A DNA stretch of 64,000 nt from Nitrosopumilus sp. (GTDB lineage Archaea; Thermoproteota; Nitrososphaeria; Nitrososphaerales; Nitrosopumilaceae): contig OY763927.2 of assembly GCA_963667665.2 (NCBI GenBank), positions 512,001-576,000 on the forward strand, in the 5' to 3' direction. This document shows, piece after piece, positions 1 to 62,006 of the stretch. Position 1 is the stretch's first letter. The number at the start of each line of letters is the position of its first letter. The notes beneath the pieces were generated by a model, which saw only the letters and a program-made list of their open reading frames with translations, made no database searches and was not told the DNA's origin. The position numbers were made by a program, and so were the translations under genes.

Positions 1-774
1 CCTGTTCCAATTGTATTGACAAGAATCAAAACAGATTACAAACATACTGGATTTTTAGACAGAGATGCTATTGATATGATATGCAAATATCTTGATCATA
101 GAAAGAAAAAAACAGGGTCAGATATGAGCAATGGGGATGCATTGTTCTTAAATAAAATGAATAAACCTGTATCCCGTTCATGGGTTTTTTGTAAGTTTCG
201 TAACATGGCAGAAAGAGCAGGAATTCAAAAAGTGATAGGCCAAAATATCCGTAAACAATACAAGATGGACTCGCATGAATTACGTGATTTATTAAAATCT
301 ACACTGATTGATTCTGGATGCAGAATAGATGTTGCAGATCATGTCATTGGGCATAAGCCAAAAGATTCCTATGAAAAACAGGCAAAACTATACCCTGAAA
401 CTTTGAGAAAGGAATACTCTAAAGCCTCAAAAAGACTCAACATATTTACAAAATTCACAAGTGTAGTTAATGGAACAGATGATGCAGATGATTTGAGGAT
501 ATCCCTCAAAGACAAACTAGATGAATTAGAAAAAATAAAACAAAGAAGCTTGGATGATGAAGCAGAAAAGATAAAAAATGACAAAATGGCTGAACAAAAT
601 GCAAGGCAAATGTCTCAAATGATGGATATGATAAATGAACTAAAAACTCAGATAAACTCTACAAAAAACAACAAATCAGATGAGTTGGAATTTTGCTGTA
701 TCAAATGCAGTACTATTCACAAGAATCAAAAATGTCCTGTATGTGATTCCAAACTAAAGAGAATTTATGAATAG
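1..774 (+). CDS. Tyrosine recombinase/integrase, C-terminal part (5' truncated by the window), with a coiled coil and C-terminal Zn ribbon
   Basis: HELR (HxxR) motif, VIGH and DSYEK (catalytic H and Y); tail CCIKC...CPVC; frame is open from base 1. Confidence 0.85.
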   Translation, partial: PVPIVLTRIKTDYKHTGFLDRDAIDMICKYLDHRKKKTGSDMSNGDALFLNKMNKPVSRSWVFCKFRNMAERAGIQKVIGQNIRKQYKMDSHELRDLLKSTLIDSGCRIDVADHVIGHKPKDSYEKQAKLYPETLRKEYSKASKRLNIFTKFTSVVNGTDDADDLRISLKDKLDELEKIKQRSLDDEAEKIKNDKMAEQNARQMSQMMDMINELKTQINSTKNNKSDELEFCCIKCSTIHKNQKCPVCDSKLKRIYE

Positions 775-14300: not shown

Positions 14301-15532
14301 TGTTCTATTACGCCACCTCCTTTGACCGGCCCCTCAACACCTGGGACGTCTCGTCCGTGACCACCATGTTCCGCATGTTCACCCACGCCGACTCCTTCAA
14401 CCAGCCCCTCAACGACTGGGATGTCTCCTCTGTCACCAGCATGGCCGACATGTTTAGCTTCGCCACCTTCTTTGATCAGAACCTCGGGGAATGGTACGTG
14501 ACGCTGGATCCGGACACCATAGCAGACACTGGCATACCAGGTGTGGTCGGGACTATATCGGCACAGAACCAACCGCTCAAAAACCACTCCCCGACATACG
14601 TAATTGTAGACGGCTTGGACAAGAACCACTTTGAGATAGCCCCTGGAAATCAACTCAACATGACATCCGGCGTCTCTGGAAAGGCCGAGTACAGCGTCAA
14701 CGTGGCTGCCTCGGGTTCAAACGTCTTTGAGGACGGTAACAACTGGCGCGTCTTGGTAGTCAAGGTGTCCGGCGACATCAACGCTCCCCCAGTGCTGAAT
14801 ACCATCGATGACCAGACTGTGAACGAATTTGTAGAGCTCACCTTTACTGCCACTGCATCTGACGATGACTCTTTGACATTCTCATTTGATGGAACATTCC
14901 CATCAGGTGCTGCCATCACAGATGATGGTAATTTCACGTGGACTCCGACTGAGTTGCAGGACGGAGACCACACCATAACGGTTCAGGTGACAGACGGCAG
15001 CCTGACAGATTCTGAGACGTTGACGGTGACTGTAAACGAGGTCAACGTGGCTCCGGTGCTGAATGCCATCGGTGACAAGGGCACAAGCGAACTTGTAGAG
15101 CTCACCTTTACTGCCACAGCCTCAGATACCGATGTGGTGGACAATGTCGTTAACACTTTGACATTCTCATTTGATGGAACATTCCCATCAGGTGCTGCCA
15201 TCACAGATGATGGTAATTTCACGTGGACTCCGACTGAGTCGCAGGTGGGATCCCATGACATAACGGTTCAGGTGACAGACGGCAGCCTGACAGATTCTGA
15301 GACGTTGACGGTGACGGTGCGTGATGTTAATGTGGCTCCGGTGCTAAATACCATCGATGACCAGACTGTGAACGAATTTGTAGAGCTCACCTTTACTGCC
15401 ACTGCATCTGACGATGACTCTTTGACATTCTCATTTGATGGAACATTCCCATCAGGTGCTGCCATCACAGACTTGCAGGACCGGATGGTAATTTCACGTG
15501 ACTCCGACTGCAGGACGGAGACCACACCATAA
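5351..15532 (+). CDS. Giant surface protein, N-terminal part: signal peptide, beta-propeller repeats, six PKD + DUF285 (BspA-like) blocks, cadherin/Ig-like repeats
   Basis: MKIFLLVAVFAVSLMVIG; repeated PxGMAFSNDGAKMFVVG...EYTLSTPFDVSTA; dozens of 25-aa FNQPLNSWDVSSVTDMxxMF units; DWGDG motifs; GNFTWTPTE units. Confidence 0.9.
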   Translation: MKIFLLVAVFAVSLMVIGVGDAEVQHTVKPGQIVASDPAPYHLTGNTWSIPDLSASQSGYAFAQTPDSTPPTFVSSELDTATRVLTITFSETIDATNVDAAKIHIRESGTYTGGITLTANELVTTTNASTISFTLTMPHLETVKGLTTPELTVEPGAVRDTSGNLIVGTFDVSTASYAGNGERFSVSGQENSPQGMAFSNDGAKMFVVGWFGEDISEYTLSTPFDVSTASYAGNGERFSVSEQDPAPRGMAFSNDGAKMFIVGDHGNDISEYTLSTPFDVSTATFANVVFSVSGQDETPTGMAFSNDGTKMFVVGWDADNINEYTLSTPFDVSTATFDDVVFSVSMQETTPTGMAFSNDGAKMFVVGTVGDDINEYTLSTPFDVSTASYAGNGERFSVSGQERTPTGMAFSNNGAKMFVIGTVGDDINEYTLSSVYPITVTSPPAGAFVTTWRTTTADKSITLPISGSGMTVDWGDGNTTASGSVNHIYNTAGDYTIQVTGGLERFHLNNAADASKLVSLDQWGNTTWTTMENAFYGADNMVYMATDTPDLSEVTNMREMFNEASNFNGNLSTWNVSKVTDMSYMFADATSFNGTLSGWDVSSVTVIYNMFEGATSFNQDISGWNVSGVTDMDDMFKGATSFNGTLSGWDVSGVTDMDEMFKGATSFNGTLSGWDVSSVTVIYSMFEGATSFNQDISGWDVSSVTVIHSMFEGATSFNQDISGWDVSGVTDMYDMFKGATSFNQDISGWDVSSANSMESMFFGASSFNQNLGNWFIVLDSNTFAADVDMLHISTQNDYLDQAKPSYTIGDTQFVIDLDPVITLNSSATVPDGSYQVTITVDMLDFGPATHSLNTEIHVQVNTPPTAFVTTWRTTATDKSITLPISGSDMTVYWGDGNTATGVSAPVDHTYNTAGDYTIQVTGGLERFHLNNDADASKLVSLDQWGNTTWTTMENAFYGANNMVYNAADSPDLSTVTDMSGMFGDASSFNGNISGWDVSKVTDMSDMFIFAYDFNQPLNSWNVSSVKNMGWMFNSATSFNQTLNSWDVSSVDNMVRMFRGADSFNQPLNNWDVSKVTSMVSMFFGTSSFNQNLGNWYVTLDPDTIAGTGIPGVVGTISAQNQPLKNHSPTYVIVDGLDKNHFEIATGNQLNMTSGVSGKAEYSVNVTASGGSVFESGNNWRLLEIKVTDQTTDTTLLADAFVTTWKTASADQSITINFVGDDMNISWGDGATETNLSGSQTHTYTEAGNHTVSVTGGLTGLTLDRPDSSGLPGPVPELASIDQWGGISWTNMSNAFTGASNMTYMATDTPDLSLVTDMSDMFRSAYDFNGDLSSWDVSSVTDMSRMFRGATSFNGDLSSWDVSSVTDMSSMFRGATSFNGDLSSWDVSKVTSMATMFFGTSSFNQPLNAWDVSSVTAMDDMFGNATVFDQPLNAWDVSSVTDMTFMFLGASSFNQPLNNWDVSSVTDMRSMFAGASSFNQPLNSWNVSSVTTMFRMFAGASSFNQTLGNWYVVQDPPVLTANATFSIRAQNSYLDGLVSTYSIDDTRFVMDDKTLSLNSTNLPPAGMYPLDITAPAVLGEPNADTHTRTITITVSDPPAMPFITTWRTDSANQTITIPVGGSTARYSIDWGDNSPAETDITGNSTHTYREADSYTVSISGGLERIYLNGQQPNAGRLASIEQWGDTRWTTMDRAFDGATNMVYRATDTPDLSGVTDMDSMFFETHSFNGDLSSWDVSKVTDMSDMFIFATSFNGNLSSWDVSAVTDMSSMFDGATSFDQPLNAWDVSSVTAMSYMFAGATSFNQPLNAWNVSSVTDMFGMFSAASSFNQTLNSWDVSSVTDMTGMFRGASSFNGNISGWDVSSVTNMNGMFRSATSFNQPLNSWNVSSVNSMNGMFETTYFNQTLNSWDVSSVNDMFRMFNEAFSFNQPLNSWNVSSVKNMGWMFNDATSFNQPLNSWDVSSVTDMARMFNSATSFNQPLNSWDVSSVNDMFRMFNDATSFNQPLNSWNVSKVISMFRMFTNADSFNQPLNSWNVSRVTNMDDMFNFATAFSQNLGEWYVTLDPDTIAGTGIPGVVGTISAQNQPLKNHSPTYVIVDGLDKNHFEIVLGNQLNMTSGVSREAEYSVNVTASGSNVFESGNNWRLLEIKVTGQITDTTLLADAFATTWKTASADQSITINFVGDDMNISWGDGATETNLSGSQTHTYINAGNHTVSVTGGLTGLTLDRPDFFGLPGLVPELASIDQWGGISWTNMSNTFAGATNMTYMATDTPDLSLVTDMSDMFRSAYDFNGDLSSWDVSSVTDMSEMFYYATSFNQPLNAWDVSSVIDMFNMFSGATAFNQPLNDWDVSSVTEMDGMFAIASSFNQPLNDWDVSSVTDMAEMFYYATSFNQTISSWNVSSVNSMDGMFEATSFNQPLNSWDVSSVNSMDGMFGDATAFDQPLNAWDVSSVTDMFGMFSFADSFNQPLNSWDVSSVTNMEDMFGDATSFNQPLNSWDVSRVTNMNDMFYFATAFDQNLANWYVVQDPPVLTANATFSIRAQNSYLDGLVSTYSIDDTRFVMDDKTLSLNSTNLPPAGMYPLDITAPAVLGEPNAGEEGHTRTLSVTVKEEHLPFITTWRTESADQSITINFVGSDMNISWGDGATETNLSGSQTHTYTEAGNHTVSVTGGLTGLTLDRPDFFGSPIGPVPELASIDQWGGISWTNMSNTFAGASNMIYNATDTPDLSLVTDMSDMFQRATSFDGDLSSWDVSSVTDMSNMFQRATSFDGDLSSWDVSSVTDMHRMFDGATSFNGDLSSWDVTKVTDMSYMFIFATSFNGNLSSWDVSAVTDMSSMFDGATSFDQPLNAWGVSSVTAMSYMFSGATSFDRPLNAWGVSSVTDMSGMFSGATSFDRPLNTWDVSSVTDMSGMFSAASSFNQPLNTWDVSSTTDMTRMFSGATSFDRPLDDWNVSSTTDMTRMFSGATSFDQPLNSWDVSSVDNMSYMFYYATSFDRPLNTWDVSSVTTMFRMFTHADSFNQPLNDWDVSSVTSMADMFSFATFFDQNLGEWYVTLDPDTIADTGIPGVVGTISAQNQPLKNHSPTYVIVDGLDKNHFEIAPGNQLNMTSGVSGKAEYSVNVAASGSNVFEDGNNWRVLVVKVSGDINAPPVLNTIDDQTVNEFVELTFTATASDDDSLTFSFDGTFPSGAAITDDGNFTWTPTELQDGDHTITVQVTDGSLTDSETLTVTVNEVNVAPVLNAIGDKGTSELVELTFTATASDTDVVDNVVNTLTFSFDGTFPSGAAITDDGNFTWTPTESQVGSHDITVQVTDGSLTDSETLTVTVRDVNVAPVLNTIDDQTVNEFVELTFTATASDDDSLTFSFDGTFPSGAAITDLQDRMVISRDSDCRTETTP

Positions 15533-42875: not shown

Positions 42876-42904
42876 AGACTATAATCATACAAATATCATA
42901 AACC

Positions 42905-43014
42905 CATCAGGGATGGGATTCGAACCCATGAAACCGAGGCACTCGATTAGAGATTTTCAATCTCTCGCTATACCGCTATATCGCTATATCGCTATACCGC
43001 TAAGCGACCCTGAC
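42905..43014 (-). tRNA. Atypical tRNA: type II (Ser-like) body, GAA anticodon, 24-nt tandem expansion in the D arm; possibly a pseudogene
   Basis: Minus strand: GTCAGGG/CCCTGAT acceptor, AGAGA-TTGAAAA-TCTCT anticodon arm, AATCGAG/CTCGGTT variable arm, ATGGG-TTCGAAT-CCCAT T arm, G73. Confidence 0.75.
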
Positions 43015-43119
43015 GAGTTTATTATTATTCATCATCATTAAAAGTATAACATTAAACACGAACCAGTCAAATTTTTATCAAAATATTTTATTTCTGAAAA
43101 ATTCTAAAACAAAATTATA

Positions 43120-47065: not shown

Positions 47066-47136
47066 GGGCCTGTAGCATGAGGGTCATACACCTAAGTAAG
47101 AACTAGGAGATTTGGGTTCAACTCCCAACAGGTCCA
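47066..47136 (+). tRNA. Atypical tRNA-like gene, apparent anticodon AAG, short variable loop
   Basis: GGGCCTG/CAGGTCC acceptor, TTGGG-TTCAACT-CCCAA T arm, CCTAA-GTAAGAA-CTAGG arm with one mismatch, weak D arm, A73. Confidence 0.7.
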
Positions 47137-47310
47137 CACTACACATAATGTACATTTAGGTAAAAATTATTCAAGGAAATTTCTGAAATACCTAGCAACA
47201 GATTCTGAAACTTTGACTAATATGTCATTAGATTTTGGTTTGTCTTTCTCCAAATATCTGAAATTTCTTGATTTTATTTCCCCTTTAATACAAATCATTC
47301 TTGTATAGTT

Positions 47311-51317: not shown

Positions 51318-51707
51318 ATGTTGTCCTCTTTTTTCTATACATGTATCACTGCCGTATCTTCTACATTTGCAGGAATATTTGTAAATGTGTTTTTCAATGA
51401 TTTTGGAATCATACCTGCCATAATATTTTATGCTTGTGCGTTCTTTACAGACTATCACTCTACAGTCAGGGTAAGAAATTTTACAAAACATGAGACAAAC
51501 CCGCTGTTTTGTATATTCTCAAAAAGACTCTCCTCTGGAATGTCATTTGGAATAATATTTGCAATAGGCATTGGAATAAACATCATATCATACGCTGTAC
51601 TGGCAGACCCAATAATATCATACGTTCTTGGCATGTGTCATCTGTGTGCAGCAGCAAACAACTATCACATATCTAAAAAAATCATACTGACGGATAATGT
51701 ATCATGA
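51318..51707 (+). CDS. Multi-TM protein with D..ST...ETNPL motif (DUF5658-like)
   Basis: TDYHST....HETNPLF between TM helices. Confidence 0.55.
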   Translation: MLSSFFYTCITAVSSTFAGIFVNVFFNDFGIIPAIIFYACAFFTDYHSTVRVRNFTKHETNPLFCIFSKRLSSGMSFGIIFAIGIGINIISYAVLADPIISYVLGMCHLCAAANNYHISKKIILTDNVS

Positions 51708-52222
51708 TCCTAATGAATATCATAAACGTGAATGCAAAGGCTAAAATATCCGGGTTTGACACTGATGCAATTATTGATGGCATTACTAATGCAGAATACA
51801 GACCAAACGGATTTCCAGCTATTTGTATTGGCAGTGACTCAGGAATCACTATCTCGTTGTTTGATTCAGGCAAGATAAACTCAAAGCGTGCAAAGTCCAC
51901 TGATTCTGCCATACTGGCAATCAATAATTTTGTCAAAACATTAAAAAAACTTGGAATGAAAATATCCATTCTCTCTAAGCCTTCCATATATCTAATTGTA
52001 ACAAATGTATTCTATGAAAAAAGAATAAACATCAAATCCCTCAAGAGTTTACCGGAATTCAAAAAGGAGATAAAACGATTCAGCTCAATCCAACTTGTAT
52101 TTCCTAACAATGTCAATGTTCTGGCATACGAGAATTCATTGAGGGTTTCAGGGAATGACATATCACATATGATGCAGGTGGTAAACAGCCTGAAAAAACA
52201 CACAATTCCTGCGGTGAAATAA
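51704..52222 (+). CDS. tbp: TATA-binding protein homolog, divergent
   Basis: IINVNAKA...AEYRPNGFPAI...SLFDSGKI...AKS; second repeat degenerate. Confidence 0.8.
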   Translation: MILMNIINVNAKAKISGFDTDAIIDGITNAEYRPNGFPAICIGSDSGITISLFDSGKINSKRAKSTDSAILAINNFVKTLKKLGMKISILSKPSIYLIVTNVFYEKRINIKSLKSLPEFKKEIKRFSSIQLVFPNNVNVLAYENSLRVSGNDISHMMQVVNSLKKHTIPAVK

Positions 52223-53255: not shown

Positions 53256-55145
53256 ATGTCTTCATTTCACTCTAGAATTTCAAAAAATTCCCCTTTAATA
53301 CAAAAACTATTCTACATTACAGTGAAAACAAAGCAGATAAAGTCATTCAAACTGGACCCATTTAATCTTGAATTTGCATTAGTCTCTACAGATGTTGCAG
53401 GAATATCAGAAAAAGAGCTATCCATATTATCATTTCTCTCATTCTTTGACAAGTTTACAGAGCCATTCTCCATTGATGTAGTGCGAGACTATGAGGATTT
53501 GCTATTCTACAAAACCATAAGGAGTTGCAGATTTGATAATGTAATAATTAACACAAGCCAGGAAAACCCTGAAAACATCCTACCTGGCGTATCATCTGCA
53601 TCTACCAGAAAGTGGGAAATAACAGAGGAGCATCCTGATTATTGTATATTAAAAGATGGATTATACTGTAAAACATACACGTTATCCATGCTTCATGATG
53701 ACTTGCCACCTGGATGGATTTACGGGTTGTATCAATATTCTGATGCAATAAGAATATTTGTAGAGCCTATACCTGACGGAAAGACACAATCAACAATTGC
53801 AAACCACAAGTCAGCTGCTGCCACAATGTCATCAGCCACTGGCATGAACTCGACTGATAATATCTCAATAATAAAAGAGTTGGTCCTAAACAAGAAAAAC
53901 CAGAAACTGTTCTTTACTAGAATAAACATTGTACTACTTGCAGCGGATGTCTCATCATTGCGCTCTAGAGAAAAAGAGTTTCTACAAAATACAAAAAACA
54001 TTCCAGGTATTGAGACTGCAAAACATGTCCAGAAAAAATTACTCCACGGAACAGAAGGTCAGAGAATTTTAATGGTGAGCAGTGCGTTTCACTGTCTTAT
54101 TCCGTTTGTAACATCAGAATTGTACGAGGAAGGCGGCATACTGTTGGGGGAAAATACAATGACAGGAAATCCAATCAGATGGAACATCAATAACCGTATC
54201 AATAGAAACACTGTACTTGCATCTACTTCTGGATCTGGCAAGACAACACTTGCAATGATGATAATTCATGCCTTTGAAAAGATGCATCATAACGCGTTTA
54301 TCTTTGGAGTTGATCCTGAAAACGAGTATGCAGTACTGGGTCAGAACATGGGATTTACCTGTGTGGATTATTCCTTTGGAAAAAAGATGGGTCTTGATTT
54401 ATTCAAGATGGTCCCAGATACTTTTGCTGCAACTGAAACATTGTGCAATGCGCTAAACGTTCCAGAAGTGGACAGAATCATTCCAAATATGGCTGCAACC
54501 ACCCTTGCAAATCTTGACATCTCGCACAGAAGCTTTACAAAATTCTATGAGATAATGGAAAAAAACGAAACAGACAATCACGCCCTAAAATATTTTAAGA
54601 TGTTGACTATTCCTCCATATTCTGACTTTTTTGAAGGGGAACCACCAAAGTCTAACAAGATAATTCTATCGCTAAAAAACATCGGCAGTGCTGGTGGAAC
54701 AGTACACAGACTAATCACACAGATTGCACTGTCTTATGCAATGGGCAGGGCATTGCTAATGCCCAAAATAATTCCGAAACTATTCATGCTAGATGAGGTG
54801 TGGATGTTACTACAACACGACTCTCTTGGTAATTATATTCAGAACTTGTCAAGACGTGGAAGAAAATACAACATCAATCTCATGATGGCAACTCAGAACA
54901 TTGAGGATATGACAGATAATGTATCTGCTCGAAACGTCCTGGTGAACAGTGACACTGTTATGTTTCTCAGGCAAAGTGAGGCTACTGCAAAATCACTCAG
55001 AGAACACTTTGTACTCTCTGATAATGCCGTCTCCTATATGATGAGATTAAACAGGGGACAGGCACTGATAAAATACGGAAATAGCATGGTTCCTGTAAAT
55101 ATCTTACCTGATGATGAGCAGTTAAAACTGTTCAGACCGAGATGA
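53256..55145 (+). CDS. VirB4-like conjugation ATPase
   Basis: STSGSGKT Walker A, VDPENEY, MLDEVW Walker B, RRGRKY, ATQN, LNRGQAL. Confidence 0.85.
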   Translation: MSSFHSRISKNSPLIQKLFYITVKTKQIKSFKLDPFNLEFALVSTDVAGISEKELSILSFLSFFDKFTEPFSIDVVRDYEDLLFYKTIRSCRFDNVIINTSQENPENILPGVSSASTRKWEITEEHPDYCILKDGLYCKTYTLSMLHDDLPPGWIYGLYQYSDAIRIFVEPIPDGKTQSTIANHKSAAATMSSATGMNSTDNISIIKELVLNKKNQKLFFTRINIVLLAADVSSLRSREKEFLQNTKNIPGIETAKHVQKKLLHGTEGQRILMVSSAFHCLIPFVTSELYEEGGILLGENTMTGNPIRWNINNRINRNTVLASTSGSGKTTLAMMIIHAFEKMHHNAFIFGVDPENEYAVLGQNMGFTCVDYSFGKKMGLDLFKMVPDTFAATETLCNALNVPEVDRIIPNMAATTLANLDISHRSFTKFYEIMEKNETDNHALKYFKMLTIPPYSDFFEGEPPKSNKIILSLKNIGSAGGTVHRLITQIALSYAMGRALLMPKIIPKLFMLDEVWMLLQHDSLGNYIQNLSRRGRKYNINLMMATQNIEDMTDNVSARNVLVNSDTVMFLRQSEATAKSLREHFVLSDNAVSYMMRLNRGQALIKYGNSMVPVNILPDDEQLKLFRPR

Positions 55146-56928: not shown

Positions 56929-57400
56929 TTATCCTAAAACTCTCCAGTACATCATAATTGATGCCAAATACACAAACCCAAGATAATTATCACAGTTCTT
57001 CTCATATCTGATTCTTGTTCTATGAAATCCATTCTTCAACCATGCAAAGAATCTCTCAACAACAAACCTTGTCTTGTTGTAATTGTTCTGCATGTTATTT
57101 GGTACGATGAATTTGGAATTATTCCTGTATGGAATGCAGCATCTGATAGAATGATTTCTCAGATAATTCCTGATGTATTTTGCATCATAGCCCTTGTCTG
57201 CATACACTGATACGATCTCTTCTATCATAGAATCATCTACAAAATCTGAAATTGATTCCATGACATCGATAAATTTCGTACTATCATGTTGATTTGCAGG
57301 ACTGCATACAATTGATATTGGCAATCCATTACTATCTACGGCAACATGTATTTTTGTACCTAGAATCTTCTTGAAACCATCATATCCAGTTACGTTGCCC
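56929..57400 (-). CDS. IS5 transposase OrfB (DDE), reached by -1 frameshift
   Basis: GYDGFKKILGTKIHVAVD...ADKGYD...RFVVERFFAWL. Confidence 0.9.
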
Positions 57401-57722
57401 CTTTTTTATTGGAAATTGATGATGAATCAACTGATATCTTTTGCAGATTAATCTTGTTTTGTTTGTAAGCTGATTTCATTATTCCAGAAAGAATCTTTTT
57501 CCATACTCCTTTTTGCTGCCAGTCTTGTAATCGTAGATGTGTAGTTGATTTGGAACCATACTTTTCTGGTAATTCTTCCCATCTGCATCCAACAGTTAGA
57601 ACAAATAGAATTCCATTAATTGTTGTTCTATCATCACATCTTGGTCTGCCTGTTCTTGCAGGTTTTGGTAAATGTGGTATAATTGATTTCCACTGTTTGT
57701 CTGTTAGTTCTTTATGAATCAT
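57390..57722 (-). CDS. IS5 transposase OrfA
   Basis: LTDKQW...GRPR.DDR...GCRW..LP..YG; ends at the AAAAAAGGGG slippery site (~57398-57407). Confidence 0.9.
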   Translation of the reverse strand: MIHKELTDKQWKSIIPHLPKPARTGRPRCDDRTTINGILFVLTVGCRWEELPEKYGSKSTTHLRLQDWQQKGVWKKILSGIMKSAYKQNKINLQKISVDSSSISNKKGAT

Positions 57723-57772
57723 AGAAATGATTTGATAGATGTTATTGTTAGATCTATACTATCATCAAATGT

Positions 57773-58573
57773 TTACAAAATGATCTGTTTTAGGATGAGT
57801 TGGGTATCATTTTTGATATCTGATATCAGTTTTGGAATCAAGGCACCACCTCCTGCACAAACTACTGGGATTCCGGGATAGTCAATTACGACTTTTTCCA
57901 GAGAATCTGAAATGTTTGCGGCAAGGATTTTTCTTGCCTCATCGAGTTGCGGGGTGTTCTTTGAGAACAGTTTTTTATCCACATAACCTGATTTAGAAGA
58001 CGTAATGGATCTTGTAATGTCGCCAACACCATGCAAAAGTGTTTGGCCATATGCTATTGTATCGTGAGTTACAGCCATTATCTCAGTTGTACCCTGTCCT
58101 ATATGACACACTATTCCATCTTCTAACCCTTCATGATCAAGGGTTGCCTTTGCCTGAAACATCACACCAAAGAACTTTGGTGCAAATCTATCTTGAACTA
58201 CATTCTTGATTTTTTGGACGTAATCTTTTGCATTGTATGGAATGCCTGCAACGATTACACATTCTGAATAGTTTTGTGGACCGCCAGGCAATGCATCTTT
58301 TTGCAATACTATGACCTTCTCTAGTGCATGTTTTACCAACTCCATATAATCAGTAATGGATGTTGGTGCTCCCCTATACACTGGAGTCTTTAACACCATT
58401 GATTTTACTGACTCTTGTTTTGCTGCTTGCTCCCCGACAAGAACAGTTTTTTTTGATTCCAAGTCCATGCTTTTGCCTCTTGCAATTATTGATGGGAATG
58501 TAAATGTGCCATGTATGGTGGCAACTTTTACCAAACCCGTTCCAATGTCAAGACCGATGCAATTTTGTTTCAT
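57773..58573 (-). pseudogene. ParM/MreB-like actin-fold ATPase truncated by the IS5
   Basis: IGLDIGTGLVK, HIGQGTTE, CAGGGA; last ~9 codons are IS sequence. Confidence 0.85.
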
Positions 58574-58608
58574 GCTAACACCAGAACATTTTGAATTTAA
58601 GGTGCCAT

Positions 58609-58861
58609 TTTACTATCGTGTAATTACACGATAGTAAATCCCAACTATCGTGTAATTTGACGATACCCAAAATCCCTCCAAAAAAGAGGTTAACAAAACG
58701 CCCTTAATACAAAAACACTACTAGTAATTAAACAAAACCCAAAAAACACCAAAAACACACTTTACAGCATAGATAAGGAAAAATCCCAAGGATTCATACC
58801 AAATTCCAAAAACGCAATTTTTTCACAAAAACCAACCAAACTATCGCGTAATTACACGATA
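58609..58861. promoter_or_regulatory. Three ACTATCGTGTAATTACACGATAGT-type palindromic boxes upstream of the actin gene
   Basis: Perfect 30-bp palindrome 58609-58638; degenerate copies at ~58643-58665 and ~58840-58861. Confidence 0.8.
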
Positions 58862-58893
58862 TCAAAACCAACAAAATTTCTACAAAAATAAAA

Positions 58894-58963
58894 TAGAGGG
58901 CTATGATGAGACAGGCGTTGATCTGACACCAATATGATGACAGGCTTCTGTCTGAGCCCTCTA
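58894..58963 (+). ncRNA. Box C/D methylation-guide sRNA
   Basis: Terminal stem tagagggc/gccctcta; C ATGATGA 58903, D' CTGA 58923, C' ATGATGA 58934, D CTGA 58952; 13- and 11-nt guides; T-tract downstream. Confidence 0.85.
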
Positions 58964-59020
58964 CAAATTTTTTGTATCAATGCTGTTAAAAATGTTAGCA
59001 CAGTCAAAGGTTTTGTCAAA

Positions 59021-59079
59021 CTGAGATATTATCTCCAACCCTGCAAAGAAATCGACTCAGCGAGTAGGGATTAAGAGAT
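59021..59079 (+). ncRNA. Pseudoknotted motif copy 1 (lacks the internal hairpin)
   Basis: CTGAG/CTCAG crossing CCCTGC/GTAGGG; outer ATCTC/GAGAT; conserved CAA, GA and C. Confidence 0.6.
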
Positions 59080-59347
59080 TAAAAGAATTTTCTCAAATAC
59101 AAATACATCAAAGAGAACAACCAGTCCGCACAGCAGTATCATTTGGTTTATTGTAAAAAGAATAAATCAACAGGAATAAATTCCCGACATTGAATGATGA
59201 GGAACTATTCACACCAGAAATTATTTTTTTAACCCTAGCGCAAGCTATACTCTGGTGACGACATCAACTATCTACGGACAGACCAGTTACAATCTGCATT
59301 AGTTCAGCATTTGAGAGAAGACCACCATTTAGGTGAGGTAAAATACT

Positions 59348-59584
59348 ATGATGCGAAAAACACAAAGCAAAAAAATTCAAAACACAGGTACAAGTGTAAT
59401 AAACGTACAAAATACATCCAGCCAGAAACTACTTTTGGCAAAGAACTACCTTGAGCAGAAACTGGAATCTCAAGGATATAGAGGTCATGTAAGATACGAC
59501 CAAACCAGTCAAGGCTCTAATCCAGTACAGAGTCAAAGAGGGAACAGTAGCAGTTCTCAAAGACGGCAAACTCTGCATATTTGA
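59348..59584 (+). CDS. Small basic hypothetical protein
   Basis: 78 aa ORF with GGTGAGGT upstream. Confidence 0.5.
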   Translation: MMRKTQSKKIQNTGTSVINVQNTSSQKLLLAKNYLEQKLESQGYRGHVRYDQTSQGSNPVQSQRGNSSSSQRRQTLHI

Positions 59585-59585
59585 G

Positions 59586-60407
59586 ATGCCAATGAAGAAA
59601 TTCAAAGGAGCATATCCATTGGAAGTACAATCAGTGGACATGGATTCAATCCAGACACAAAAAGCCACTTGCTGCAAGAGATGCCATACATGGAGACAAC
59701 AAGCAGACATAACACGATGTTCCTGTGGGGGATATCTTGTTCCAAGAAAGAGATTCTCTGTAGATACAGTAGAGTCATGGGATGAGCAATTCCTAGAGAT
59801 AGAATTTGCAAAAAAAGACATCAGAGCAGCAATAAGAACTGACAGAATTCTATCACGCAGACCAAGAAAATACCAAACAACAGGTATCACCCACAAACTC
59901 GCTGGAATATCATCTACAGAAATAGTAGATTCCCACAAAGAGGAATTGTTACTAATTCCAAGCGGTGATGATGTAAAGACTGTTCAGGTCAAACCAATAC
60001 TATCATGCAGTCTGATTTTTGTTGCTGCAATCAGTAGAGAAGACAAACCAGTTACAGACACAGACAAACTAGAGATTCTCAAAAAATACAACCTAGAGCC
60101 TGTAAATGATGATGCAAAAGACAGACAGTTCAAGTCCGAGGCAAAACAATTCATCAACCACACAACACCAATCCTATCTGAACAACTGATGGATTCATGG
60201 AACCATTCTGCATCTAGAAGACAGTCCAAAGTGTATAGAAGAAAGGTAAACTCTCTTGAGAAGAAATGGGACGGTACAGAATTGAGGAGACTGGACTACA
60301 AATATGGTCATCTATCAACCAAAAAAGACCGCAAAGAAAAGAACCAGCATATAACACAATCCTTTGCAAGCTCGATTCCTATCCCAACAGCAAATCAGAA
60401 AGCATAG
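59586..60407 (+). CDS. Basic hypothetical protein with an N-terminal Zn ribbon
   Basis: CKRC...RCSCGG; 273 aa. Confidence 0.65.
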   Translation: MPMKKFKGAYPLEVQSVDMDSIQTQKATCCKRCHTWRQQADITRCSCGGYLVPRKRFSVDTVESWDEQFLEIEFAKKDIRAAIRTDRILSRRPRKYQTTGITHKLAGISSTEIVDSHKEELLLIPSGDDVKTVQVKPILSCSLIFVAAISREDKPVTDTDKLEILKKYNLEPVNDDAKDRQFKSEAKQFINHTTPILSEQLMDSWNHSASRRQSKVYRRKVNSLEKKWDGTELRRLDYKYGHLSTKKDRKEKNQHITQSFASSIPIPTANQKA

Positions 60408-60620
60408 ATGATGACTGCTGAAGAATCTGCATTGAAACAATTCCAGGACGAACCATTTTTTGAGGTTCTGGTACAATCAATATCAAGAAAGGCAACAGCA
60501 TATGCATATGCACAACTTGTACAGAAATCAAATCTGGGTTCTGGAAACACAGTTGACTGTATCATAAAAGAGCAGGTACAAAAAACAATCCACAAACTCG
60601 AAAAGATTGGACAGTCTTAA
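60408..60620 (+). CDS. Small hypothetical protein
   Basis: 70 aa ORF abutting the previous gene. Confidence 0.5.
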   Translation: MMTAEESALKQFQDEPFFEVLVQSISRKATAYAYAQLVQKSNLGSGNTVDCIIKEQVQKTIHKLEKIGQS

Positions 60621-60671
60621 AAGCAAGAGAATTCCAACAGGAATAATGTCTAAGACAAAAACTGACTTTGA

Positions 60672-60748
60672 CTGAGTCTATCGCTCCAACTCCGTTATTC
60701 TGGTATAATAATACCAGCTGACTCAGCAGAACGGATGTGTGAGTTGAT
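60672..60748 (+). ncRNA. Pseudoknotted motif copy 2
   Basis: CTGAGTC/GACTCAG crossing TCCGTT/AACGGA; internal hairpin CTGGTAT/ATACCAG; followed by AAGGAGG and the ATG at 60767. Confidence 0.7.
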
Positions 60749-60766
60749 CCTTAAAGGAGGAAAAAA

Positions 60767-61459
60767 ATGGCAAAACAATTTATCAAAAGAACACTCATGG
60801 CAATAGTATTTACCATGTTGATTGTCATTGTAGCATCCCTTACATATCAGTATGTGGTTCCGATGGTACTTTCGATGGATACATCAAATGTGTCAGACGG
60901 AATAAACATTGGAAAAGGAATGTTGTACAATGCAAAAGAGCAGGTTATGAATGTCATGGGACAAAATGAAAAGAACTCTCAGGGAACACAAACTGATACT
61001 GCAAGTCAAGATGTAGAATTGTGGTACCAGAACAAAACAGTTGAAAAATCTCAAGGTACACAGACTAGTACAGCAAGTCAAGATGCAATACCATATGGTA
61101 CAGCACTTGGAGGCAAAGTCACCAAAATCGTAGACGGTGATACTCTAGATATTGATGGTACAAGAATCAGACTTGCGCTAGTCAATACACCAGAAAGAGA
61201 AGAAACAGGATATGCAGAAGCTACAGAATTTACAAGATTACACTGTCCAGTTGGTAGTACAGCAATGTATGATATGGATGATGGACAGAGAGATGGTTCT
61301 TACGGCAGAGTCATCGCAAAGGTGTGGTGCTTTGGATATCCAGTGGAGACACCAGACACATCATTGAATGCAATGCTGGTTAATTCAGGACATGCAGAAA
61401 TATTTCACAGATTCTGTAATACCAGTGAGTTTAGCAGTGATGAATGGGCAAACTGTTAG
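60767..61459 (+). CDS. Membrane-anchored thermonuclease (SNase) family protein
   Basis: N-terminal TM; KIVDGDTL, RIRLALVNTPE, YGRVIA, LNAMLVNSGHA. Confidence 0.9.
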   Translation: MAKQFIKRTLMAIVFTMLIVIVASLTYQYVVPMVLSMDTSNVSDGINIGKGMLYNAKEQVMNVMGQNEKNSQGTQTDTASQDVELWYQNKTVEKSQGTQTSTASQDAIPYGTALGGKVTKIVDGDTLDIDGTRIRLALVNTPEREETGYAEATEFTRLHCPVGSTAMYDMDDGQRDGSYGRVIAKVWCFGYPVETPDTSLNAMLVNSGHAEIFHRFCNTSEFSSDEWANC

Positions 61460-61487
61460 AGAATTTTCACACAAATATTTTTTTTGA

Positions 61488-61557
61488 CCTGACAATCCTC
61501 TCAAATCCAATACCAGTGCAAATGCACCTGACAGGCAGATTGGATGTGAAGAAGGTT
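61488..61557 (+). ncRNA. Pseudoknotted motif copy 3 (sequence-divergent, structure retained)
   Basis: CCTG/CAGG crossing ATCCAAT/ATTGGAT; hairpin GTGC/GCAC; preceded by a T-run and TGA. Confidence 0.65.
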
Positions 61558-61589: not shown

Positions 61590-62006
61590 ATGACTGAACA
61601 AAACAATTCAGAGAAAATAAGAACCAGTCTAATGCGACGACAAAACGTGATATTTGTGGCAATGATAATAGTTGGGTTATTCCTGACCATCACGAGCCAG
61701 CTAATAGACAAACGACTGCTAAGTGAAGGCATAGCCTTTATTATAGTTGGATTCGTAGGTATGTTAATGTCTTGGACTACAATGGATATTGGCGCAAGTA
61801 TCAAGGAGGTAATCTATGATGTCGGCAGACAAAACCTGACAGTATTAGAATCCATTGCAAAATCTCAAAACGAGATGGTAAAATCTCTAAACGAGATGGT
61901 AAAATCTCTAAACGAGATGGTAAAATCTCTAAACGAGATGGTAAAATCTCTAAACGAGATGGTAAAATCTCTAAACGAGATAAAAGAAATCTTACAAGAC
62001 AAATAG
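61590..62006 (+). CDS. Two-TM protein with a C-terminal heptad-repeat coiled coil
   Basis: Two TM segments; KSLNEMV repeats. Confidence 0.75.
   Translation: MTEQNNSEKIRTSLMRRQNVIFVAMIIVGLFLTITSQLIDKRLLSEGIAFIIVGFVGMLMSWTTMDIGASIKEVIYDVGRQNLTVLESIAKSQNEMVKSLNEMVKSLNEMVKSLNEMVKSLNEMVKSLNEIKEILQDK
61860..61981 (+). repeat. 21-bp in-frame tandem repeat, five full copies plus one partial
   Basis: aaatctctaaacgagatggta. Confidence 0.95.

Follow-up and report, generated by a model that had tools for sequence, protein, structure and literature searches.

Results

A box C/D sRNA gene with two guides

The window analyzed here, a stretch of 64,000 nt from the genome of a Nitrosopumilus species, contains on its forward strand a 70 nt gene for a box C/D sRNA (58894..58963). 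The gene is bounded by an 8 bp terminal stem, the 5' arm of which (58894..58901) pairs with the 3' arm at 58956..58963. Between the two arms, and on the same strand, lie box C (ATGATGA, 58903..58909), a D' guide of 13 nt (58910..58922), box D' (CTGA, 58923..58926), a 7 nt loop that separates boxes D' and C' (58927-58933), box C' (ATGATGA, 58934..58940), a D guide of 11 nt (58941..58951), and box D (CTGA, 58952..58955). A single T at 58902 is left unpaired between the 5' stem arm and box C. A run of six T residues further downstream (58968..58973, forward strand) is a candidate archaeal terminator and probably ends transcription. The original prediction had listed four consensus boxes with normal spacing, a T-tract and the motif CAGGC in both guides, all of which were found. 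It had also given the stem as 8–9 bp; the 8 bp form was recovered, while the ninth pair was not, the flanking A and C being unpaired. The norm for guide spacers in archaeal C/D sRNAs is 12 nt, and the C-D' and C'-D spacers of 13 nt and 11 nt are close to this value. In addition, boxes C and D have the sequences expected of a k-turn, C' and D' boxes lie between them, and the terminal stem covaries among homologues (see below). Altogether, the predicted architecture was confirmed, and 58894-58963 is best explained as a genuine box C/D sRNA gene with a putative transcript.

The arrangement is distinct from the genomic background. A strict four-box pattern has one match on both strands of the 1.89-Mb genome, namely this locus, and a relaxed pattern that tolerates one mismatch in C' or D' again retrieves this site alone; in five order-1 Markov genomes the relaxed pattern, for which a stem was not demanded, matched 0, 0, 0, 0, and 1 times. 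The sRNA folds with -25.2 kcal/mol (z = -3.59 versus shuffled sequences). No Rfam family reached its gathering score at the sRNA locus: the top score was 23.3 bits for SNORD53_SNORD92 (threshold 46), and the archaeal sR families scored 10–20 bits against thresholds of 36–55. Nevertheless, in a permissive Rfam scan of 58500-59400, 17 of the 23 weak matches belonged to C/D-box families, and these were placed exactly on the sRNA.

Among RNA-library contigs, one (X16, record 10) covers 58731-59021, which is weak evidence of transcription because DNA carry-over is possible; the contig gives neither strand nor ends. Such contigs also span neighboring genes. The RNA run X15 contains an alternative junction at 58898 that would delete most of the sRNA. 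X18 and X20 have no cover on the sRNA, and X15 has none at 58974-59375; gaps of this kind between contigs are uninformative on expression. A sigma-70/terminator scan was set aside as inapplicable to archaeal promoters, and no promoter was identified.

A partition-type module flanks the sRNA gene

Upstream of the sRNA, and transcribed divergently from it, lies a gene for an actin-fold, ParM-like partition protein (57773..58573, reverse strand), which matches Pfam Actin (E 6e-06, just under the curated cut-off), the PHROG annotation 'partition protein' (E 4e-05), and actins in the PDB (E 5.7e-08). The intergenic region between the two genes harbors three copies of a palindromic site, which may be operator- or centromere-like. 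The first (58612..58635; repeats D1, I2, and I4) resembles a palindrome at the equivalent place upstream of the sRNA array in the related genome G274, the second was found in the repeat search at 58644..58665, and the third (58840..58861) stops 32 nt short of the sRNA stem, an arrangement that is kept in G274. In comparison with ParMRC systems, an actin-fold protein and three palindromic sites are present, and no protein was recognized as a ParR-like adaptor. An IS4/IS5-family transposase, encoded in two ORFs on the reverse strand, immediately follows the actin-like gene on its downstream side (56929..57722, comprising 56929-57324 and 57390-57722; Pfam DDE_Tnp_1, E 4.5e-16; DUF4096, E 1.6e-26).

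On the other side of the sRNA, three genes follow on the forward strand. The first (59586..60407) encodes a conserved 273-aa protein with Cys-rich, zinc-ribbon-like motifs that has homologues with 51–80% identity in the modules of G353, G274, and G177. This protein has no match in Pfam, PHROG, or NCBIfam; its AF2 model is unusable (mean pLDDT 35.6), and the ESM Atlas yielded no usable lead (top score 0.81). The second gene encodes a staphylococcal-nuclease-like endonuclease (60767..61459; Pfam SNase, E 1.8e-05; PHROG endonuclease, E 1.3e-14), counterparts of which are located directly downstream of the sRNA arrays in G274, G353, and G384. A coiled-coil protein (61590..62006), recognized by domain search and also represented by homologues in relatives, completes the conserved module.

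The association of the sRNA with the actin-like gene recurs in the genus, where most family members have such a gene and palindromes as neighbors. Close homologues of the actin-like gene adjoin family sRNAs at seven other loci, that is, eight loci including the window. Within the genus, 11 loci have a homologue with at least 53% identity, and eight of them carry a family sRNA within about 1.5 kb. The remaining three comprise two loci in G291 without a detected sRNA and one that is truncated by a contig end. Members of the family are also found apart from the actin-like gene.

The locus belongs to an integrated conjugative-type element and would depend on host proteins

The original prediction had placed the sRNA on an apparent mobile element, and this was borne out by genes for an integrase and a VirB4-like ATPase, by att repeats, and by relatives in which the site is empty. 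The whole window is contained in an integrated element, single or composite, of about 91.6 kb (C1:511044-602680). A 13-bp direct repeat has only two chromosomal copies, at C1:511044 and C1:602668, that is, at the two ends of the island. In the relatives G183 and G254 the island flanks are contiguous, and a copy of the att repeat is left at the empty site, exact in G254 and with one mismatch in G183. The left flank of the island is conserved in all 12 of the 12 genus genomes compared, whereas C1:576001-596000, within the island, is not conserved in relatives. At one end of the island lies a gene for a tyrosine recombinase, the 3' part of which occupies positions 1..774 of the window (full ORF C1:511101-512774, forward strand; Pfam Phage_integrase, 40 bits; NCBIfam XerA-type, E 1.8e-08). 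A VirB4/CedB-like conjugal-transfer ATPase is encoded at 53256..55145 on the forward strand, with NCBIfam matches under the curated cut-offs, both to conju_CD1110 (E 2.1e-40) and to VirB4 models, and a Pfam match to P-loop_TraG (E 6.4e-12). With recombinase, att repeats, empty site and conjugation ATPase, the island has the attributes of an integrative conjugative-type element, the VirB4-like scores being sub-cut-off. It also carries an atypical tRNA-Leu(AAG) (47066..47137, forward strand; Rfam tRNA, 39.2 bits; ARAGORN).

The island contains no gene for L7Ae, Nop5, or fibrillarin. The genes for fibrillarin (C1:55544-56197), Nop5 (C1:56478-57161), and L7Ae (C1:1329041 and 1187667) are all located outside of it, so any RNP formed by the sRNA would have to use host proteins. 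Pfam Nop matches only the host Nop5 and thus found no Nop-domain protein in the island, and Pfam, PHROG, and NCBIfam searches of the module proteins gave no Nop match. The idea that the sRNA in the window is the sole C/D sRNA of the genome was rejected, as other, less canonical ones exist: at least two host core sRNAs have degenerate internal boxes (C1:137688-137786 and about C1:1405585-1405680). The same genome also contains another member of the family described below (C1:409033-409108).

A family with conserved scaffolds and variable guides

A covariance model of the sRNA family, termed R1, recognizes the gene in the window with 76.7 bits (E 8.9e-18). Within the genus, 14 of 151 genomes have strong matches, defined as those over 40 bits; the element-free relative G183 has no R1 match. 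Thus, the sRNA is not a core chromosomal gene, a possibility that had been named as counting against the original prediction. Within a 400-genome tally, G340, G206, G228, G093, G258, G260, G092, and G077 had no significant match. When 185,579 species genomes were searched with a family-specific pattern, 12 assemblies gave matches (16 stretches), all from Nitrosopumilus or Nitrosopumilaceae; there were no matches in viral contigs and three short matches in metagenome contigs. Judged by these searches, the whole sRNA family is confined to the accessory DNA of the Nitrosopumilaceae.

The scaffold is highly conserved. Across 25 homologues (alignment A1) the boxes are invariant or nearly so, including the columns of boxes C and D, and a long, sequence-conserved 8-bp stem is common to all members. 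In the stem, 89% of the cells pair, and two pairs show compensatory changes (16 cells). None of 500 shuffles reached the covariation score of the stem, and slid controls were all lower. The variation in the alignment is concentrated exactly at the two guide positions.

The window contains a single copy, whereas relatives often carry arrays in which 3 to about 13 near-identical scaffolds lie head to tail and repeat every 130–260 bp or so. Within and between these arrays the D guides are hypervariable and the scaffolds conserved; even near-identical scaffolds, for example those of the window and G353b, have almost wholly different D guides. The D guide of the window differs from those of all other members beyond the first 3 nt. 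The D' guide behaves differently. The 9 nt adjoining box D' are identical in the homologues of G274 and G449 and in three of the four copies of the G353 array, the fourth having a different base next to box D'. This core is kept across elements with diverged loops, C' boxes, and D guides, and the outer 3–4 nt of the guide vary among homologues.

Candidate targets of the two guides

The original prediction had reported no full-length target in the window, which holds true and extends to the genome at large. Apart from its own antisense strand, the D' guide is without a complement at 0–1 mismatch anywhere in the genome, and the D guide has four sites with one mismatch, none of them in a known stable RNA. 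A site with two mismatches and six genomic copies was rejected as a target and attributed to a repeat and chance. Shielding of tRNAs or of RNAs of the element itself had been proposed as a purpose. This proposal found no support from the two guides, for which no tRNA target was found and no target with up to one mismatch exists within the 91.6-kb island.

The top host complement of the D' guide is SSU 904-912, with eight Watson-Crick pairs and one G.U, that is, nine pairs. The fifth position from box D' pairs with A908 of this SSU rRNA, equivalent to E. coli A969 in the helix-31 loop region. The numbering is based on MAFFT, used pairwise with the K-12 rrnH operon after a BLAST search with the SSU segment had found no match in E. 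coli. The segment is 99–100% identical in G274, G353, G080, G444, and G449, and the guide variants of G274 and G080 lengthen the same SSU duplex to 10–11 pairs. LSU 2002-2010 is a nearly equal partner of the D' core, which leaves the site ambiguous. The D guide is complementary to SSU 883-890 (eight Watson-Crick pairs by guide positions 4–11; predicted site A884) and, at 10 of 11 positions with one internal mismatch, to LSU 2908-2918. For an active guide, it would be unusual that the duplex of the D guide begins no closer to box D than position 4.

Singly, neither guide has a match to host rRNA that beats chance. The longest Watson-Crick run through position 5 is 8 bp for either guide; among 1000 shuffled versions of each, 176 for D' and 239 for D attained this length. 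The guide scores do not exceed those of reversed decoys (8.5 vs 8.5 and 7.5 vs 8.0). The two SSU matches are 14 nt apart, with the D site upstream. An 8-bp run of the D guide within 60 nt of the D' site was equalled by 244 of 20,000 shuffled guides, in a statistic that was devised post hoc.

Complementarity was also scored across the family. With the rRNAs and tRNAs of the genome containing the window serving as a proxy for those of the other genomes, 14 of 41 unique D' guides scored at least 10, compared with four of 41 reversed decoys, although the guides are related and their independence is overstated; for the D guides, the values were 6 of 42 and 1 of 42. At low stringency there was no enrichment (SSU, 36 matches vs 35 on the reversed sequence). 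The top family sites correspond to E. coli C1407, A969, A1918, A1969, A2451, and 2560. These rRNA sites fall in known methylation hot spots, which PMC7994747 describes. Some family guides match functional centers of the ribosome or tRNA anticodon loops over 10–11 bp, among them 10-bp matches of other members to the anticodon loops of tRNA-Asp and tRNA-Ala. A hot-spot clustering statistic was discarded as uninformative (5 and 9 guides per 25-nt window for real rRNA vs 7 and 4 for the reversed sequence) because related guides inflate real and decoy counts. Taken together, the family complementarities point to ordinary putative targets, namely functional centers of host rRNA and, for other members, tRNA anticodon loops. 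The suggestion of the original prediction that the element could alter host RNA survives in this form, as a predicted activity.

Discussion

A proposed mobile methylation guide and its alternatives

The reading that we prefer, with a probability of about 0.5, is that the sRNA is a C/D methylation guide on a conjugative-type element of about 92 kb that uses host proteins and acts most likely on the host SSU rRNA. In the proposed mechanism, boxes C/D of the transcript would form a terminal k-turn and C'/D' an internal k-loop. The folded transcript would be bound by the host L7Ae, Nop5, and fibrillarin and would direct 2'-O-methylation to the nucleotide that pairs with the fifth guide position upstream of box D' or D. 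The D' guide is predicted to pair with SSU 904-912, placing the methylation in the helix-31 loop region at A908 (E. coli A969). The D guide would pair more weakly with SSU 883-890 (A884), and may be a drifting or orphan guide.

This reading has to be weighed against several others. The sRNA could be an orphan or decaying passenger, whose intact scaffold may still bind L7Ae, Nop5, and fibrillarin, but whose drifted guides methylate nothing and which is kept by linkage. Both guides are indeed at chance level against host rRNA and tRNA, the D' guide is without a genomic complement at up to one mismatch, D guides on near-identical scaffolds (window versus G353b) are nearly all different, and the X15 junction apparently represents a population variant without the sRNA body. 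PMC7994747 gives 28% as the fraction of Pyrobaculum guides without a target, which also counts for an orphan. The conservation of the D' core among elements that have diverged in loops, C' boxes, and D guides points the other way, and the four perfect boxes and the stem argue against decay of the scaffold. We consider a passenger unlikely, albeit with an appreciable share of the probability. Hypervariable D guides on conserved scaffolds would also be expected if these guides were the diversifying functional part of sRNAs directed at non-rRNA substrates, such as mRNAs of host or element, RNAs that stem from viruses or competing elements, or tRNAs in need of protection from ribonucleases. The anticodon-loop matches of other members and the location on a mobile element, which suits functions in conflicts, agree with this. 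For the window's own guides, however, no target with up to one mismatch was found in the island or in a recognizable RNA elsewhere in the genome, nor a tRNA match. External collections cannot be searched specifically with guides as short as 11–13 nt. We regard such substrates as improbable for this sRNA.

Three further explanations dispense with guided methylation by fibrillarin. The k-turn might serve the maintenance of the element, by titration of host L7Ae or through a cis or trans effect on the region that serves partition or replication. The sRNA shares a palindrome-controlled intergenic region with the actin-like gene, one palindrome ending 32 nt from it, and at eight loci it keeps a constant place between the actin-like gene with its palindromes and the downstream module; moreover, L7Ae is reported to regulate translation via k-turns (PMC5539422). 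On the other hand, guided methylation requires C'/D' boxes and spacers of about 12 nt, which are conserved here and which mere L7Ae binding does not need; canonical rRNA matches are seen for several guides of the family, and members also occur away from the actin-like gene. We regard a pure maintenance role as quite improbable. The tandem interspaced dual-guide units on mobile elements of relatives, with a nuclease gene immediately downstream of the array in G274, G353, and G384, are reminiscent of a TIGR-Tas-like system, in which an effector of the element, the SNase-like nuclease or the 273-aa zinc-ribbon protein, would take the place of fibrillarin. SNase-like nucleases are common cargo of conjugative elements, which weakens this argument. 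A further point in favor is that the partners of TIGR arrays are Nop-domain proteins, which are related to the C/D RNP (PMC12045711). By Pfam search, however, the island encodes no such protein, and the units are full k-turn C/D sRNAs, in periods of about 130–260 bp in relatives and as one unit in the window, rather than 36-nt tigRNAs; we hold this system to be very improbable here. Lastly, the repeat-rich intergenic setting beside a partition gene might suggest that the locus is not an RNA gene at all, and instead a DNA-level feature (an iteron or a protein-binding site) or a chance arrangement. The chance expectation is about 0–1 per genome even without a stem, boxes are conserved and stem changes compensatory across 25–69 homologues, and the variation is concentrated precisely in the two guide positions. 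This last explanation is scarcely credible.

The preferred reading, a methylation guide that is carried by the element, can be extended to the whole family. The conjugative-type elements of the Nitrosopumilaceae might carry exchangeable C/D guide cassettes, from single units to arrays of about 13, that take over fibrillarin and methylate ribosomal centers and tRNA anticodon loops to the advantage of the element. We put this forward as a speculation that is, on balance, unlikely. If true, the sites would comprise the helix-31 P-site loop, the decoding center C1407, H69, H71, the peptidyl-transferase A2451, and the A-loop flank, with the sRNA of the window aimed at helix 31. The translation apparatus would then be reprogrammed or protected, for example, becoming resistant to toxins that attack ribosomes or tRNAs where symbionts live in a dense community; another example would be a role in addiction or in control of the host.

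Comparison with known systems

The sRNA resembles those in the catalogues of archaeal C/D sRNAs from Pyrobaculum, Sulfolobus, and Pyrococcus in its C/D and C'/D' boxes, the spacers of about 12 nt and the terminal stem, as well as in the 10–11-bp complements of family members to rRNA hot spots and tRNAs and the predicted use of host core proteins. It differs from them in the lack of an Rfam match at the gathering score, in its occurrence in a mesophilic Nitrosopumilus, in its location on an integrated mobile element with linkage to a partition-type module, and in the long 8-bp stem, the sequence of which is conserved in every member. Clustered or polycistronic archaeal C/D sRNA genes are said to have been described by Tripp et al. 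in 2017, and several sRNA genes lie head to tail in the relatives analyzed here as well; here, in contrast, each array consists of 3 to about 13 near-identical scaffolds and is located on a mobile element. Mammalian snoRNA retroposons, reportedly described by Weber in 2006, likewise represent guide-RNA genes spread by mobility. In that case the snoRNA itself is retroposed, whereas here the gene is cargo of a DNA element.

With TIGR-Tas (PMC12045711), the family shares tandem units on mobile elements, two short variable guides per unit, and, through the Nop domain, an evolutionary link to the C/D RNP; however, Pfam searches gave no Tas/Nop protein in the element, and the predicted effector is host fibrillarin acting on RNA. 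The single 70-nt unit of the window and the units of about 130–260 bp in relatives also differ from a regular 36-nt dual-spacer array. The thaumarchaeal integrated conjugative elements of PMC6563490 are similar to the island in that the chromosome of an AOA harbors short att repeats together with genes for a tyrosine recombinase and a VirB4/CedB-like ATPase; the main text of that paper, supplements aside, makes no mention of sRNA, snoRNA, ParM, actin, or fibrillarin. New in the present analysis, on the level of genome comparison, appear to be the sRNA family R1, its linkage to a partition module, and its amplification into arrays with swapped guides.

C/D guide RNAs are usually treated as chromosomal housekeeping genes, whereas here a family of them resides on accessory DNA. 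These sRNAs represent the first concrete candidate methylation guides for mesophilic ammonia-oxidizing archaea, each with a predicted site, although published supplements may hold thaumarchaeal sRNA lists or relevant annotations of elements. If the sRNAs are active, mobile elements can horizontally alter the methylation pattern of host ribosomes and tRNAs, new guides can arise and spread by way of such elements, and the loci would be a natural intermediate, beside TIGR arrays, for understanding the relation of tandem dual-guide systems to C/D RNPs. Guide RNAs that direct changes in host rRNA may thus travel on mobile DNA.

A box C/D sRNA gene and its possible transcription

The original prediction placed a canonical box C/D guide RNA gene at 58894-58963 (+ strand), and when the sequence was re-read, all the listed boxes, the guides, the stem and the T-tract were present there. 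A 5' stem of 8 nt and one unpaired T precede box C (ATGATGA, 58903-58909). The 13 nt D' guide leads from there to box D' (CTGA, 58923-58926), a 7 nt loop to box C' (ATGATGA, 58934-58940), and the 11 nt D guide to box D (CTGA, 58952-58955), which is followed by the 8 nt 3' stem and, starting five bases past that stem, a T6 run (58968-58973). The terminal stem had been given as 8-9 bp; it exists, and its length is 8 bp. The genome (1.89 Mb, both strands) has a single match to a strict four-box pattern, namely this gene. A relaxed pattern also had its sole match here and, with the stem not required, yielded 0, 0, 0, 0 and 1 matches in five Markov-chain genomes. The RNA fold has a z of -3.59. No Rfam family reaches its gathering score at the gene, and a permissive scan places weak alignments to 17 C/D-box families exactly on its coordinates. 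The architecture is that of an archaeal box C/D sRNA, one outside every curated Rfam family.

Parts of the stretch occur in 20 of the 24 listed sequencing runs (9 studies), 4 of the 20 being recorded as RNA, and run contigs were compared over 57500-61500. A 313 nt contig from the RNA library X16 covers 58731-59021 and carries a variant that changes the D' guide into the form found in the relative G274; X15 has depth over 58706-58973. Because RNA-library contigs give neither strand nor ends and may reflect DNA carry-over, they provide a weak hint of transcription. In the RNA libraries X15 and X18, from two studies, a common loose end joins 58898 to 59703 via the same unlike sequence, and this shared junction suggests a variant within the population, with about 800 bp replaced and most of the sRNA body missing.

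The surrounding integrated island

The whole window (C1:512001-576000 of the genome under study, G000) lies inside an integrated, conjugative-type island of ~91.6 kb (one element or a composite), as follows from flank conservation, 13-bp repeats, empty sites, a recombinase and the cargo. The left flank on the chromosome C1 (C1:496000-511060) is kept in 12 of 12 sampled same-genus genomes, and C1:576001-596000 is unconserved in relatives except for IS-like pieces. In the relatives G183 and G254, homologues of C1:510416-511060 and of C1:602687 onward are about 280 bp apart. A 13-bp sequence with exactly two copies in the chromosome marks both junctions (C1:511044 and C1:602668), and the empty site holds one copy, exact in G254 and with one mismatch in G183. 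A tyrosine-recombinase frame of 557 codons begins 45 bp inside the left repeat. The cargo includes a VirB4/CedB-like ATPase (53256-55145), an IS4/IS5 transposase and a divergent TATA-binding-protein (TBP) paralogue (51704-52222; Pfam TBP, E 1.7e-09), a homologue of which is present in the G353 element; an atypical tRNA-Leu(AAG) is also island-borne (47066-47137; Rfam tRNA, 39 bits). Between about 5 and 29 kb of the window (5000-29000), the G+C content is 51-57%, vs 34% for the genome. We put the probability that a real C/D sRNA gene is carried here on a mobile element at about 0.9.

Several other features were observed. Within the high-G+C segment lies an open frame of 3393 codons (5351-15532). 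At 42904-43015 (C1:554904-555015), ARAGORN called an odd, repeat-containing 'tRNA-Ser' only with the whole genome as input. At 59190-59235, CAGA comes 14 nt after a box-C-like ATGATGA, together with a T-rich run; this candidate was rejected as an sRNA because R1, the covariance model of the sRNA family, gives no match there. Five chromosome regions (C1:392689-401518, 252547-268153, 178032-185405, 1824774-1832522 and 1852629-1860096) contain dozens of copies of a unit of about 240 bp (76-95% identity, spacing 360 bp or multiples); these are probably giant repeat-protein genes.

Distribution of the sRNA family

In a BLAST search of 400 family genomes, real matches to the window sRNA were confined to a few same-genus genomes. 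Two tandem series were matched in G274, with head-to-tail units of about 130 bp that share stem and boxes and differ in their guides, and with an upstream palindrome of the same kind as in the window. R1 was built from 25 copies, among which the boxes vary hardly or not at all, and the stem pairing is preserved by compensatory changes at the two outer pairs (0 of 500 shuffles attain the observed score). Matches at E <= 0.001 were obtained in 33 of 151 genus genomes, and 14 genomes, the one under study (G000) among them, had matches above 40 bits. Of 13 weaker matches inspected, 10 represent one conserved chromosomal sRNA, 2 a second one and 1 a degenerate family member; hence, the host has its own core C/D sRNAs. 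Both are conserved genus-wide with degenerate internal boxes, and in G000 they lie at C1:137688-137786(+) and about C1:1405585-1405680(-); their guides have no rRNA match at <= 2 mismatches. The window sRNA is thus not the sole C/D sRNA of the genome, although no other one there has four strict boxes.

A second G000 family member, with degenerate boxes D' and C' and an internal hairpin, lies at C1:409033-409108(-) (7034-7109 of the locus excerpt L085), in a region unconserved in relatives. A 99%-identical repeat adjoins it and also occurs at C1:12127-12704. Across 185,579 species genomes, a family-specific pattern had 16 matching stretches, spread over 12 assemblies whose titles all name Nitrosopumilus or Nitrosopumilaceae; it gave three short matches in metagenome contigs and none in IMG/VR viral contigs.

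Searches by tblastn with island proteins revealed a conserved neighbourhood that consists of a divergently transcribed actin-like gene, palindromes (in the window, 58612-58635, 58644-58665 and 58840-58861), one or more sRNAs and genes for an SNase-like nuclease, a 273-aa Cys-rich protein and a coiled-coil protein. The actin-like/sRNA neighbourhood was found again in G274 (twice), G177, G353, G080, G368, G384 and G444. Close actin-like homologues (>= 53% identity) occur at 11 loci across the genus, one of them cut by a contig end; family sRNAs lie within about 1.5 kb at 8 of the 11, and none was detected near the homologue at two, both in G291. Tandem arrays in relatives comprise 3 to about 13 units with near-identical stems and boxes and differing guides, at periods of about 130-260 bp. 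They are located in G274 (L035 6040-6922(-) and L036 6041-6768(-), 6 units each), G080 (L039 5576-7176(-), at least 10), G444 (L084 7863-11213(-), about 13), G353 (L037 4838-5611(-)) and G368 (L045 5769-6538(+)), and every one of these adjoins the actin-like gene and/or the SNase-like gene. A second recurrent setting, without the actin-like gene, was also seen: in G291, G374 and G370 (L041, L043, L081, L082 and L083), homologues of a 122-aa island protein encoded beyond the window (C1:594740-595108) are found at a distance of 0.5-0.7 kb from solitary family sRNAs.

Predicted targets of the guides

The supposition that the element draws on host fibrillarin agrees with the gene content: fibrillarin and Nop5 genes lie side by side at C1:55544-57161, L7Ae and a paralogue at C1:1329041 and C1:1187667, and none of them within the island, so any RNP must use host proteins.

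The D' guide has no full-length or 1-mismatch target anywhere in the genome. Its best rRNA complement is SSU 904-912 (one G.U and 8 Watson-Crick pairs) or LSU 2002-2010, and the D guide pairs best with SSU 883-890 (8 Watson-Crick pairs, formed by its positions 4-11) or, with one mismatch inside the duplex, LSU 2908-2918. Each taken alone, these matches are at chance level, with 176 (D') and 239 (D) of 1000 shuffled guides doing as well on rRNA. That the window sRNA is an orphan passenger appears unlikely to us. What raises the SSU reading above chance is a conserved 9-nt core, longer duplexes in variants and the spacing of the two SSU sites, 14 nt apart. The 9 nt pairing with SSU 904-912 are identical in the G274 and G449 homologues and in 3 of 4 G353 array copies (the remaining copy has a different base beside box D'). 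Around this core, the next 3-4 nt have diverged, as have the loop, box C' and the D guide. Guide variants in G274 and G080 lengthen the duplex to 10-11 pairs, and five element-bearing genomes share the SSU target segment at 99-100% identity. In a post hoc test, only 244 of 20,000 shuffled D guides produced an 8-bp run no more than 60 nt from the D' site. In an alignment with E. coli, A908 and A884, the two predicted sites, correspond to A969, in the helix-31 loop region, and to position 945. We consider it about an even bet that the window sRNA directs methylation near helix 31 of the host SSU rRNA.

For the family as a whole, the counts are based on 69 parsed copies, excluding one odd 120-nt match and six weak or antisense matches, and the 56 D' and 56 D parsable guides gave 41 and 42 unique 12-mers. 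Scores >= 10 on host rRNAs and tRNAs were reached by 14 of 41 D' guides vs 4 of 41 on reversed decoys, and by 6 of 42 D guides vs 1 of 42, counts in which the guides are mutually related and the RNAs of G000 stand in for those of all genomes. In E. coli numbering, the best sites are C1407, A969/C970, A1918, A1969, A2451 and 2560; the tRNA-Asp and tRNA-Ala anticodon loops are also among them. Judged by this excess and by these positions, the family appears to behave like ordinary rRNA and tRNA guides, with the window copy as a weakly matching member.

Three guides (L039 6813-6884(-) and 6507-6578(-) in G080; L084 10027-10105(-) in G444) pair over 9-10 bp with LSU 2548-2558 in one common register. 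The predicted 2'-O-methylation falls on A2552, which aligns with the peptidyl-transferase-centre adenosine A2451 of E. coli, where a methylated 2'-OH would be expected to affect catalysis. A recurrent guide core can form 9-10 bp with tRNA-Asp(GUC), in its anticodon loop and 3' anticodon stem, and the predicted site is position 35 in some copies and 36 in others. The core is carried by C1:409033-409108(-) (L085 7034-7109) and by the copies at L035 6310 and 6456, L036 6431, L080 7091 and L039 5882. The guide at L078 7281 pairs with the anticodon loop of tRNA-Ala(UGC) over 10 bp.

Comparison with known systems

The regions hit by the best family sites include methylation hot spots named in the literature, e.g. 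H68-71 and the peptidyl-transferase centre (PMC7994747). The terms sRNA, snoRNA, ParM, actin and fibrillarin do not occur in the main text of a survey of thaumarchaeal integrated elements (PMC6563490), and our literature search, with supplements outside its scope, found no publication on element-borne C/D sRNAs. The nearest architectural analogue of the sRNA arrays in relatives is the TIGR-Tas array (PMC12045711). TIGR-Tas is defined there by the Tas (Nop-domain) protein, whereas the island around the window lacks one, and, unlike in TIGR-Tas, the array units in relatives are full k-turn sRNAs.
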